Positions 2,932-63,795 of a DNA stretch of 64,000 nucleotides are shown one piece after another. The position numbers and the translations under genes are program-made. How positions within the stretch are numbered: the first letter of the stretch is position 1; each line of letters starts with the position of its first letter. The stretch spans positions 325,748,001 through 325,812,000 of the forward strand of contig OZ024742.1 in assembly GCA_964016885.1 (NCBI GenBank), in the 5' to 3' direction. This DNA comes from Eledone cirrhosa. Taxonomy: Eukaryota. The notes beneath the pieces are model-generated. The model saw only the letters and a program-made list of their open reading frames with translations. It ran no database searches and was not told the DNA's origin.

Positions 2932-3052
2932 GGTATTGACATATGTTTCTGTAACAGACGGAATACCTATGTATCGCTGCTTGCGTAATAATATAATGTT
3001 AGCAAGTATTCGATAGCAAATGTATAATCAGTTGTCACTTCTTCAGAGATTT
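2932..3052 (-). ncRNA. Type I hammerhead ribozyme motif with extended stem II (stem I degenerate)
   Basis: Minus strand: CTGAAGA (3046-3040), agtgaca...tgttaca stem II, GAAAC-ATAT-GTC (2949-2938). Homologous to the 8026-8145 motif and its downstream tail. Confidence 0.65.
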
Positions 3053-3533
3053 TGGATAAATTGGATAAAATCAGAAAAATTGAAGTATTTATATTAGTAA
3101 TAGAGGAAGAAAAAGAGGGGATAGTATATGACAGATGGTAAATCAATTTACTGCTAAACAAGTATATAATGGGTTTCTAATGAGAATACCATGAGTAAAT
3201 GGTTCATTTTATCTAAATATGAATTTTTGGGAGTGCCAATTTTAATCTCTACTTGACCAATTGGACAGTGGACAGGGCTGGTCATTTGGTGTAGTAGTAT
3301 TAATTATAAAGTGTCAATTGGGGAAGGGGGAGATTTCGATTGCTACTGAATAACATCAATCTTAGTAGCCAGCTGGTATATGCATTAGGGAATTGAATCA
3401 AGAAATCAGAAATCTCATTTTATCTATAGCAGTTTATATTAAAAGGTAAATAATAGAAGAGTTGATAGAATTAAAACTAATAAAGAATGTTAATATCTAT
3501 TTTGACAATCAAACGGAGATAGAGACAGGCGTT

Positions 3534-5710
3534 CAATCCTGGTAGTATTTATAATATGAAAATGTAGATTTTAAGCGATGGTTACAGTATAACGATCGCT
3601 CTATTCTGTTATTTAATAAAATGTTTTTGGATTTCATAATACAAAATAATTCTACATTACATAATTTACAATATTCCTGTCCATGGGATATGGGGGGGGG
3701 GGGCACCCGCTATTATATCCCATTTTAGGTGAAATTGTTGGTTATTTTCACGCAGCTGCCAAGCCTTGTCTGCGAGTGTTGTTACATAACGCTGGTTTTC
3801 ATGTTTTATCGAGTAACGATGTCTATAAAGGCGTGATTTGAAGGAGGTGGCTGTAGATCCCACATAGTACCACTTCTGTCTATCCGATTCGATAGTACAT
3901 TTGTATATGATGTTGCGTTCAAGACACTGATTGTTCAACGGACACATTCCTGGTTGGACACAGTTGCAATTATAATTTTGCGTTGTTGTATTGTCATGGA
4001 TGGGTTGATGAGGTTGCTTATGTAGGACAGGATGTTGTTTGTTGTTTTGTGATGTTATAGCTAATGTTTTACGTGTATTGTTATGTGTTGGAAGGCGTTT
4101 ATACAACCGTTTTGCGTTAAGCTTTTTTATATGTTGTTCAATATTAGGGGCGGTTGAATATGAAAGTCGAATAGTGTTAGGGTTTAAGATTTTATTATAT
4201 TTATGTGATGTTGGAAAGTGTTTTTTAACTAATCGAAAGAAGTTTGAGGGTAGATTGGTTTTAATAGAGTTGTTATAGTCCGGGTTGTACCAAATATACT
4301 CCTTACATCGCCTTCTGTTTGGTGGTGTGCGACTATTATTGTGTCTATTGCGGTAGTGTATGTATGGTGGTGATTCTGTGCTATTTCTACTCCTATGGGA
4401 TTTATTTTCGGTGTTTTGGTGATTTTCGACTATATACTCTATATTATCTAGGTGACCAGCTTTCCTAAGTGCATCATCATAATATTCGGCATGTTCTTTG
4501 AAGGTTTGTTGGTTGGACGACAGGCGGGAGATTCTAAGAGAGACATTTCTAGGGATGGATTTAATTATAGAGAGTGGATGGTTAGAACTCGTATTTACAT
4601 ATTTAAGGTTCTCATTAAGTTTATGGAACGGTTTAATCGTATTAACGGTTCTCATTAAGTTTATGGAACGGTTTAATCGTATCTGTATTGAGATTCAAAG
4701 TAACATCAAGCAAATTGACCTCTTTGAGGTTATATTCAAATGTAATATTTAATCCTAGTTCCTTAAAAAGCTTTCTGATATTTTTACGCATCCTTTCTAA
4801 ATTCTGGTTATTCATATGCTTAACTAATAGGAGCGCATCGTCACGGTAGATTCCACCGTGGAGATCCTTGAATTTTCCTTGTAATATGTGGGTGATATAA
4901 ATTCCCACAAGATCTGTTACTTCCGCCGAATCATTAGAACCCATAGTGATATCAAAATTAGAAGGTCTATCTTTGCGAACCCAGTAGCTATCATCGAATT
5001 TAACTATAGTTTTCCTCGCTTCCATAATAATTTTAATTTCAGCATCCGTAAGGTCGGAATTATCCTTAGCGAACGAAAGAGCTTCATGTAGAGTATCAGG
5101 TGAAATTGAGGAATAATATTCATCAATATCAAACTGAATAAATTTTCATTTTTTCTTATCAGTAATGTTATTAATGCATCTTATTGTTTCATGAGTGTTA
5201 CCCCATAGTTTAATTTCTACTTTAACCTTAACTTGGGGGATAATTCTGTCTAGTATATATTTGCTAATTTTGCCTATATCAGATTTAGAGGGGCATATAA
5301 GTCTAATATTAGGGTTAGTATCGAAGTTTACCTTGTGGTCCTTCAGGTTGAAGGATGGTATAGCTGGTGTTAAGGGTTGCGTTCTATAGTCAATACAAAG
5401 TTTTTTTAACAATTTCACATGCCGAGTTGTTGATGTTTTTAAGTGTAGCTTCATTAGTTTTCCTGTATTTTTTATGCAATTCCTTACGGATGAAGTTATT
5501 GTAAGTGTCCACATCTATGGTATATACGTTTGGTGTTTTGTCTGCTCTAACAATAATTCCATTGGCGTTTTTTAGATTATTGAGCAGTGCCGTGATGTCA
5601 TTCTGTAGTTTATTGTTCTTCCGTTTTGTAAATTTGATCTCCATGATCATATCCATTAGGTCTTGTTCTAATGCATCCAAAAGTGGGTTTGGGGGTGGGT
5701 TCTTGTTATA
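3534..5710 (-). pseudogene. Penelope-like retroelement ORF (reverse transcriptase + C-terminal GIY-YIG endonuclease), 5'-truncated, frameshifted; Naiad-like by motif style
   Basis: ORF pieces 5390-5788, 5146-5514, 4642-5025 and 3666-4655 join into one PLE protein: ADKT, IRLICP, FIQFDIDEYYSSI (~5103-5143, read by hand), ITMGSNDSAEVTDLVG, GIYRDDALL, LLDVTLNL, WYNPDY, CNC..CPLNNQCL, NIIYKC..YYVGST..FKSRLYRH. After the G-run frameshift the frame continues CKLCNVELFCIMKSKNILLNNRIERSLYCNH..YQD* to ~3534. Confidence 0.92.
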
Positions 5711-62718: not shown

Positions 62719-63686
62719 TAGATAGATAGATAGATAGATAGATTAATAGATATAGATGTATATTATTATGTGTGTCAACATATACTTGTGTATGTATGTT
62801 TGGGAATATGAACGGTTTAGCGTGTGTACTTTCTTGGGCGTGCATAATTACGATACAACGTTGTCAGTCCGCCAAGGTTTTTAAATGCACAGGCCAGATG
62901 TTAGCCCACCTAAGACGTGGACGTCTCAGATCAGTTACATAATAGGGTTATGGCTCGTTACAATGCAGAGTGGTAGAAGGAAAGGATATGGTTTATTTGG
63001 GTGGTGAGAATGAGTATTTGAAATTGAGCCGCTAACATTATGCACAAAATCATGAATGCACACACAAAAACATATACGCATAAACACACAGAGAGGCATA
63101 CACGCTCGTACGCAAAAAACACACACATGCACACATTCTGAGGCACACGTTTTTATATGTAAATGGAGAAGTTAAGCGCTGTGTCTGGTAACAAAAATTC
63201 CCGAAGATAGTCTGTATTTAAAATACGAATTTATTCTGGATTCAACTACTCACAGACTTCACGCACACTCGTCTACCAAATCTCTCTCTCTCCCTCTCTC
63301 TCTCACTCTCTCTCTCTCTCTCTCTTTCACTCTCCCTCTCTCTCTCTATATATATATATGTGTGTGTGTGTATAGGAAAATGTTCAAGACCCCGACGGCA
63401 GATCCTTCGTTATGGTCTACCTGGTTCCTTACCACACTTCCTTCGTTATATATACATACATATATATATATATATATATATATATATATAAATATTAAAA
63501 GAAAACATTTTGAATGAGAAAACAGATACGGGTCGGAGCAGTTAATACAGCTCAAAATATGAGATTTAATCGAGTAAACTAATCAGAAATCTACATACAA
63601 GTCTAGTTTTATGAACTCCTTATTTTAGACGTTTAGGTACACTCATAGAGCAAATATTACTTTGAAAAGAAAACCAACGACAGTTA

Positions 63687-63795
63687 TTTGTATTACATTT
63701 TAATTAACTTACGTTTCGTCCACTTCATAAAAAATATAATTAATTATTAGTTAGTCGATTATATGAACAAATGTTTGGATTCATCAGAATACAAA
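63687..63795 (-). ncRNA. Type I hammerhead motif with extended stem II (slightly degenerate)
   Basis: Minus strand: tttgtatt-CTGATGA(63787-63781)-atcca-[53 nt]-tggac-GAAAC(63717-63713)-GTAA-GTT-aat...aatacaaa. Confidence 0.6.

Follow-up and report, generated by a model that had tools for sequence, protein, structure and literature searches.

Predicted type I hammerhead motifs with a long stem II in Hydra-clade Penelope-like elements and non-coding tandem repeats of Eledone cirrhosa

Hammerhead motifs in the window

We analyzed a 64,000-nucleotide (nt) window of contig OZ024742.1 of Eledone cirrhosa, whose genome comprises 3.0 Gb. The window has a G+C content of 34.6% and contains many (TA)n arrays and broken open reading frames (ORFs) of retroelements. 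An initial annotation, made from the sequence without database searches, had proposed five hammerhead ribozymes with a very long stem II. All five motifs were recovered by a descriptor scan, at 2938-3046 (minus strand; site 1), 8031-8140 (plus; site 2), 16413-16492 (minus; site 3), 46813-46926 (plus; site 4) and 63706-63787 (minus; site 5). The spacers between the two core blocks (90, 91, 59, 95 and 63 nt) and the loops III (ATAT, ACGT, TACGTA, GATC and GTAA) were as annotated. The type I order of core blocks, CUGANGA (or a U3-A8 variant), GAAA and UH, is present at all five sites, and we predict that the five are type I hammerhead motifs. The scan also returned four additional copies, at 7828-7937, 17010-17089, 17607-17686 and 43658-43771, all on the minus strand.

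The window has 17 core-only matches; 150 local dinucleotide shuffles averaged 6.3. When stem I of at least 3 bp and basal stem II of at least 4 bp were required, five matches were obtained against 0.03 in the shuffles, none of which reached five. These strict matches correspond to site 2 (twice), site 4 (twice) and site 5; sites 1 and 3 fail the strict filter. Stem I has 5, 5 and 4 bp at sites 2, 3 and 4, respectively, 6 bp in the site 5 family and a single base pair at site 1. The basal stem II next to the core consists of 4-8 bp with two-sided changes, mostly behind a mismatch at positions 10.1/11.1.

Some details of the annotation had to be revised. A paired base of stem II was found at site 3 only (G-C, followed by a bulged C); at the other four sites the first position is mismatched (A.A, A.A, U.U and A.C) and the helix begins one pair later. 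The loop is palindromic at sites 1-4 and not at site 5. Nor are all five sequences unrelated, as the elements of sites 1 and 2 share 72% identity over the ORF.

Comparison with Rfam yielded no hammerhead match at the gathering score in 12 sources; the short-stem controls were missed as well, so this comparison has little power. At E<=10, no hammerhead family was found among the 150 matches listed out of 271. In a simple scan run with no positive control, hammerheads with the GAAA block before the CUGANGA block (not circularly permuted, type SGC) were found neither in the window nor in 30 shuffles.

Sites 1 and 2 and Hydra-clade elements

Site 1 belongs to a copy of a Penelope-like element (PLE) at 2770-5717 (minus strand), which is 5'-truncated and frameshifted, encodes a reverse transcriptase (RT) followed by a CxCX5C linker and a GIY-YIG endonuclease, and ends in (TA)n. 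This copy is 96.8% identical to a 3.1-kb tandem unit at another locus (L434). Its hammerhead (2938-3046, minus) combines CUGAAGA, a 90-nt stem II hairpin, the palindrome ACAUAUGU and a GUC triplet with the 1-bp stem I. Site 2 represents a second family, which is present in the window as two inverted arms between (TA)n arrays, each arm being a 3' end. The left arm (7783-7960, minus) carries the hammerhead at 7828-7937 with a mutated loop, ACTT. The right arm (8008-8295, plus), which has a longer tail, contains the site 2 hammerhead with a 5-bp stem I, a 91-nt stem II, the palindrome ACACGUGU and GUC.

Translations of both families, read against the clade description, revealed a single ORF with RWK and DKT motifs, a divergent RT, the CxCX5C linker and, at the C terminus, a GIY-YIG domain; homologues of these ORFs include a Hydra vulgaris protein. 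Both families also show (TA)n targeting, tandem and inverted 5'-truncated copies and an optional tail, habits of the Hydra clade, although the tails are ~110 nt long here and 30-40 nt in the clade description. Since the RWK, DKT and CxCX5C motifs and the (TA)n targeting fit the clade described by Craig et al., we conclude that sites 1 and 2 end predicted Hydra-clade PLEs. Hydra thus replaces Naiad/Neptune, the clades named initially; a relaxed scan after four Neptune-like or Poseidon-like ORF ends detected no hammerhead. Pfam returned no family for two Hydra ORF pieces of the window. In several families, an intact Hydra ORF sits 0.4-1.3 kb upstream of the hammerhead, and the ORF start lies 174-189 nt after the cut site. 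A first look at the genome gave 1734 candidates for the site 1 family and 810 for the site 2 family, with top copies 99-100% identical. The site 1 family, in which this applies to the top 40 copies, is therefore young.

Three side observations concern these elements. At 1716 (minus) and upstream lies another diverged Hydra endonuclease remnant, downstream of which a hammerhead was not detected. At locus L166 (1150 nt after the ORF end at 3738) and also at L280, a Hydra family combines a 54-nt stem II and a U3-A8 core with a long stem III, in whose loop there is a 6-nt palindrome; descriptors limited to a short loop III miss it. Finally, 13 of 25 clusters with a spacer of at least 72 nt, versus 1 of 25 upstream controls, have AATAAA or ATTAAA at most 28 nt past the cut site (for example at 8141-8146, plus, and 2925-2930, minus), a possible poly(A) signal.

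Sites 3 and 4 in non-coding repeats and a decayed copy at site 5

Site 3 lies in an array of three tandem, non-coding, retrozyme-like units of 597 nt (16336-18202, minus). Each unit carries a hammerhead (16413-16492, 17010-17089 and 17607-17686) with a U3-A8 core, a 59-nt stem II and the palindrome ACUACGUAGU, and the array is followed by an inverted, shortened arm of the unit (18202-18419, plus). There are 1614 genome candidates of this unit, with arrays of up to seven units (seven in tandem at locus L432). The site 4 family has a non-coding unit of 720-989 nt and 2789 genome candidates; its loop alternates among AATT, GATC and GGCC. In the window it is represented by a ~730-nt unit copy at 43452-44388 (minus; hammerhead at 43658-43771) and by a truncated copy at 46782-47113 (plus). 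The latter contains site 4, with a 4-bp stem I, U.U at 10.1/11.1, a branched 95-nt stem II, the palindrome ACGAUCGU and GUU. Both copies are taken in, together with flanking DNA, by a nested inverted duplication at 42248-48331 with arms of up to 445 nt and 96-99% complementarity.

In the site 3 and site 4 units, the longest sense stretch free of stop codons is shorter than 100 codons. As non-coding tandem units, each with a type I hammerhead, they resemble described retrozymes of the non-LTR type (LTR, long terminal repeat). They likely use the enzymes of Hydra-clade PLEs. An apparent parent of site 4 was rejected: near-identical proteins adjoin different hammerheads (L124, L404 and L391; L409 versus L166), and for the same reason links between an endonuclease and a distant hammerhead at a single locus were not accepted.

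Site 5 is part of a decayed copy (63654-63790, minus) of an older family with 72-88% identity, self excluded; its hammerhead has a 63-nt stem II and GUU. The copy is damaged: the family match begins 3 nt before the core, and the insert folds no better than shuffles.

Of 25 clusters whose spacers are 40-71 nt long, nine have a splice-donor-like motif (GTAAG or GTATG) 10-34 nt past the cut site, versus two in the control. At site 3, such a motif is followed near 16385-16395 (minus) by a branch-point-like sequence and a pyrimidine tract, which suggests that the 597-nt unit may hold a short intron.

Conservation of the stem II hairpin

We used 50 clusters with a spacer of at least 40 nt, clustered at 85% identity and filtered on stems. 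Inserts folded at z<-2 in 30 of them, whereas 7 of 50 upstream controls did so. Most often, a basal helix of 4-9 bp leads into an asymmetric internal loop and then one or two more hairpins. In five Hydra families a length of 85-91 nt was kept, 18 of 24 predicted pairs showed two-sided change, and an internal-loop motif, 5' C-A-N-U opposite 3' UAGG, was nearly invariant despite their divergence; blastn gave no match between the 3' untranslated regions (UTRs) of the site 1 and site 2 families. Covariation within families was seen in distal helices. When 14 diverse long inserts were folded as a consensus, four basal pairs were all that emerged, because the alignment was out of register; narrower sets gave folds. 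These comparisons indicate that the insert is a conserved predicted hairpin with compensatory changes.

A predicted pseudoknot occurs in a subset of clusters, in which the nucleotides just past the basal helix pair with a strand that ends 5-10 nt before the core. At least five Watson-Crick pairs were found in 13 of 50 clusters, versus 3.4 with permuted partners (13 was reached in none of 5000 permutations); the mirror control gave 6 and the far-upstream control 3. At site 3 (16473-16503, minus), GAGGU (16503-16499) would pair with an internal-loop segment of stem II, ACCUC (16477-16473), and at site 4 (46803-46833, plus), UGGGCA (46803-46808) would pair with UGCCCA (46828-46833). The pairs vary by family and elsewhere include GGAAAA/UUUUCC, GAGAAU/AUUCUC and UUGAGUU/AACUCAA. 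Across 19 homologues the helix was 96% paired; one pair was C-G in 10 and U-A in 9, with no exceptions, a split that probably reflects one event. In some short forms, loop II takes part in the same pairing, suggesting that the hairpin was added behind a pre-existing contact.

Abundance in the genome

A scan with the strict descriptor of 79 evenly placed 10-kb samples (790 kb) gave 17 matches, versus two summed over all 12 shuffled sets. Their spacers measured 8-30 nt in nine cases, 31-45 nt in three, 46-70 nt in three and 71-120 nt in two; thus, 8 of 17 exceeded 30 nt. We also searched the whole genome with exact patterns (4-nt loop III; control, reversed pattern). The matches numbered 7,087 for spacers of 9-30 nt (control 934), 10,015 for 42-71 nt (control 776), 16,688 for 72-100 nt (control 697) and 3,428 for 130-158 nt (control 530), the last class being dominated by a long interspersed element (LINE) family. 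These raw counts include false matches, in which LINE RT codons give CTGATGA (~12 of the first 100 rows at 42-71 nt).

We inspected the first 30 loci of a 42-62 nt search and the first 30 of the 72-100 nt search, picked by core and spacing only. Stem I of at least 4 bp was present in 22/30 and 22/30, respectively, basal stem II of at least 4 bp in 24/30 and 22/30, and a palindromic loop III in 26/30 and 29/30; in slid registers, none of these counts exceeded 3. In this genome the long forms are more numerous than the short. Based on the pattern counts and on the stem and palindrome rates in these loci, a fair estimate is ~20,000 long-form copies, and extrapolation from the five matches above 45 nt in the 790 kb sampled leads to a similar number, with a wide margin of error. 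The annotated claim of an abundant, PLE-tied long-stem-II class that has a dimer-type palindromic stem III and is missed by short-spacer searches was thus borne out. Search length is not the sole reason for the misses, as Rfam also failed on the short-form controls. In such a genome, a hammerhead census that caps the spacer at a short length would overlook most copies.

Comparison with other organisms and known hammerheads

For comparison, 78 Hydra-type loci were taken from metagenome contigs, after retention of the best 80 among 359 confirmed stretches. Hammerheads were found in 53 of the 78, and all 63 hammerheads had a spacer of 10-25 nt in a scan allowing 140 nt; shuffles gave 0-2. The other 25 loci, often on short contigs, had no hammerhead match. 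The spacers of 59-95 nt in our window are two to four times the longest spacer of related elements in other organisms. A midpoint-rooted tree built from 44 endonuclease regions put the elements whose 85-109 nt spacers are securely linked in a group apart (support 93/90) from the metagenome elements and from the 20- and 38-nt forms of this genome; the group also has two rows with no secure link. On this limited sampling, the long form looks lineage-specific.

The accessible parts of Craig et al. (2021; PMC8557442) describe Hydra-clade hammerheads that have the same type I order, lie near the 3' end of (TA)n-targeting PLEs with a C-terminal endonuclease, and share the near-palindromic stem III, U.U at 10.1/11.1 and the GUA, GUU and GUC triplets. 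Their core search used a 7-17 nt spacer, and the published Hydra examples there have spacers of 12-26 nt (counted by eye; 23 nt in Hydra-1_oBim), in contrast to 59-95 nt at our five sites and up to 119 nt elsewhere in this genome. Two "deviating" Selaginella PLE-X motifs of ~48 and ~54 nt in the same table are a partial precedent for a long loop II outside animals. In the available part of its supplement, the record preceding Naiad_Adux has a 3' UTR in which, by eye, CTGATGA and a GAAA-led palindromic hairpin stand ~43 nt apart with no obvious stem I.

The minimal metazoan PLE hammerheads of Cervera and de la Pena (2014; PMC4209133) share the short stem I, palindromic helix III, dimer model, U3-A8 covariant core and bulged helix II. 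However, their helix II has 6-8 bp with a conserved G10.1-C11.1, and neither a pseudoknot nor an appended hairpin is described in the sections of that paper available to us. Dimeric variants associated with PLEs (Lunse et al. 2017, as given in the accessible text of a review, PMC6765202) likewise have a reduced stem III, a palindrome and dimer cleavage. The available text of Perreault et al. (2011; PMC3088659) reports a Watson-Crick pseudoknot between stems I and II in ~40% of examples, needed for fast cleavage, and tolerance of U10.1-U11.1; unlike there, the stem II partner here is in the internal loop of an extended stem, within a dimer-type ribozyme. Animal non-LTR retrozymes (Cervera and de la Pena 2020, PMC7229834; Li et al. 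2026, 10.64898/2026.07.22.740005; both in part) match the site 3 and 4 units in having non-coding tandem units, a type I hammerhead in each and a proposed PLE dependence. Their unit sizes of 51-972 bp are said to cover the 597-989 nt units here. The long stem II of our units sets them apart, as does the fact that circular RNA is a retrozyme trait and ours were seen as DNA.

The "long helix II" of PMC13725137 is 6 bp. The literature covered, which falls short of some relevant papers and supplements, does not mention animal PLE hammerheads whose stem II has an appendage of 45-120 nt. PLE hammerheads, core variants, the U·U mismatch, the palindromic stem III, the dimer model, the pseudoknot type and the retrozyme arrangement are already published; the new part is the long stem II.

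Proposed working and alternatives

We consider it fairly probable that type I hammerheads at the repeated ends of Hydra-clade PLEs, and in short non-coding tandem repeats likely using the same enzymes, carry an added 45-120 nt stem II hairpin outside the catalytic core, and that tandem transcripts are likely still cut to unit length as dimers, probably weakly or with protein help. The proposal builds on features read directly from the DNA, namely the motif, its element context, the (TA)n insertion, the stems, the palindromes and the conservation of the hairpin. Two tandem copies would pair their 8-10 nt palindromes to form helix III. [quoted passage not shown] Cleavage after GUH would then free unit RNA, which may be circularized. 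For sites 1-4, the calculated energies of the dimer palindrome duplexes (8-10 bp) are -7 to -13 kcal/mol, and those of the 2-bp monomer hairpin +2.4 to +2.7 kcal/mol. A stable helix III should therefore need two copies. Dimer formation has already been proposed for PLE hammerheads in the accessible text of PMC4209133.

Several observations weigh against this proposal. Stem I is missing (1 bp) in all 37 inspected copies of the site 1 family, and since this family is young, cleavage seems dispensable for its spread; among our results, this one speaks most strongly against a need for cleavage. Positions 10.1/11.1 are paired in only 1 of 15 forms with 72-100 nt, the mismatch being nearly universal, and the triplet at sites 4 and 5 is GUU. 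A pseudoknot of at least 5 bp is missing in 37 of 50 long clusters in the register searched, sites 1, 2 and 5 among them. The consensus energy term for covariation in the five-family alignment is slightly unfavorable (+0.32), and the covariation counts were drawn from related sequences with few independent events. No autonomous parent could be securely tied to sites 3, 4 and 5.

The initial annotation had also suggested that the insert is an RT-recognition or priming structure. Measured from the cut site, the genomic ends are 42 or 155 nt downstream at site 2, 55 or 165 nt at site 1, 77 or 246 nt at site 3 and ~184 nt at site 4. As these ends, the presumed RT start sites, are 42-246 nt past the cut site, priming within the insert is unlikely; the copied template would span the cut site and would thus have to be uncleaved or religated. 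According to the available account of in vitro work on an anole PLE, RT starts downstream of the hammerhead, cleavage needs added protein, and hammerhead mutants still insert. By analogy, the end positions here match the anole pattern, which argues against priming in the insert.

Recognition is a separate matter. The long hairpin could be mainly a handle by which the RT-endonuclease protein recognizes its template, with the hammerhead as a scaffold. We regard this as rather unlikely, even though the internal loop is nearly invariant in five Hydra families (and the 3' UTRs of the pair compared gave no blastn match), the 85-109 nt hairpins track one subclade of Hydra proteins, and the anole hammerhead cuts only with added protein. 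The element ends fall outside the insert, and Hydra elements of other organisms get by with 10-25 nt. In the same partial account, anole templates from 20 nt into the ORF, which begins at stem II, still work with an RT start downstream of the hammerhead.

Alternatively, the extension might be tolerated, nearly neutral growth in an AT-rich genome, with many hammerheads already dead passengers. The retention of length (85-91 nt) and pairing over five families with two-sided changes, the covarying distal helices and the better folding of inserts than of shuffles speak against neutrality and make it unlikely in our judgment; the coexistence of spacers of 13 to 119 nt in one genome, the spread of the site 1 family without stem I and the lack of effect of anole hammerhead mutants on in vitro insertion (as far as that source was accessible) are what it would explain.

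At site 1, the insert may offer a possible alternative 7-bp helix (2930-2968, minus), in which 2962-2968 in the 3' arm of stem II would pair with 2931-2937 just past the cut site. The idea that the insert is a switch or a swapped stem I strand, with this pairing blocking cleavage or replacing stem I, draws on the complementarity of AGGUAUU in the insert to AAUACCU after GUC and on the presence of the helix in the minimum-energy fold. A related family (cluster C17) has an 8-bp version over the cleavage triplet, and both segments are unchanged in 33 of 37 copies. We judge it very improbable, as the helix was seen in just these two families, which are related, and is absent from others that share the UAGR motif, and the 37 copies contain no compensatory change. 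Chance pairing of two short motifs in repeat-rich DNA accounts for the false LINE matches in the raw counts but is negligible as a general explanation, being refuted by the shuffle controls, the stems, the palindromes and the position at element ends.

Beyond the proposed dimer cleavage, stem II may have turned into a modular domain in one animal lineage: a hairpin, anchored by the pseudoknot and bearing a conserved internal loop, would bind RT or gate cleavage and, in the site 1 family, supply the missing stem I strand via a strand swap. We put this forward tentatively, as an unlikely extension; if true, it would give a direct handle on why PLEs carry hammerheads. On the question of why PLEs keep them, this genome provides a natural series with a stem II of 13 to 119 nt, with and without the pseudoknot. 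Together with a young family that lacks stem I, the series should make the roles of cleavage, dimerization and protein binding separable in simple assays.

Other features of the window

A dispersed repeat of ~200 nt is present in six copies (2252-2454, 11249-11414, 13003-13189, 15611-15815, 46620-46709 and 54943-55090) with A-box and B-box-like motifs. It is probably a tRNA-derived short interspersed element, to judge from these motifs; ARAGORN made no tRNA call on it. Other mobile-element remnants, at 23009-23566, 29572-30624, 38256-39348, 56907-57710 and 61423-62742, comprise a Tc1/mariner-like ORF and several non-LTR RT fragments, one of which has a PHD finger.

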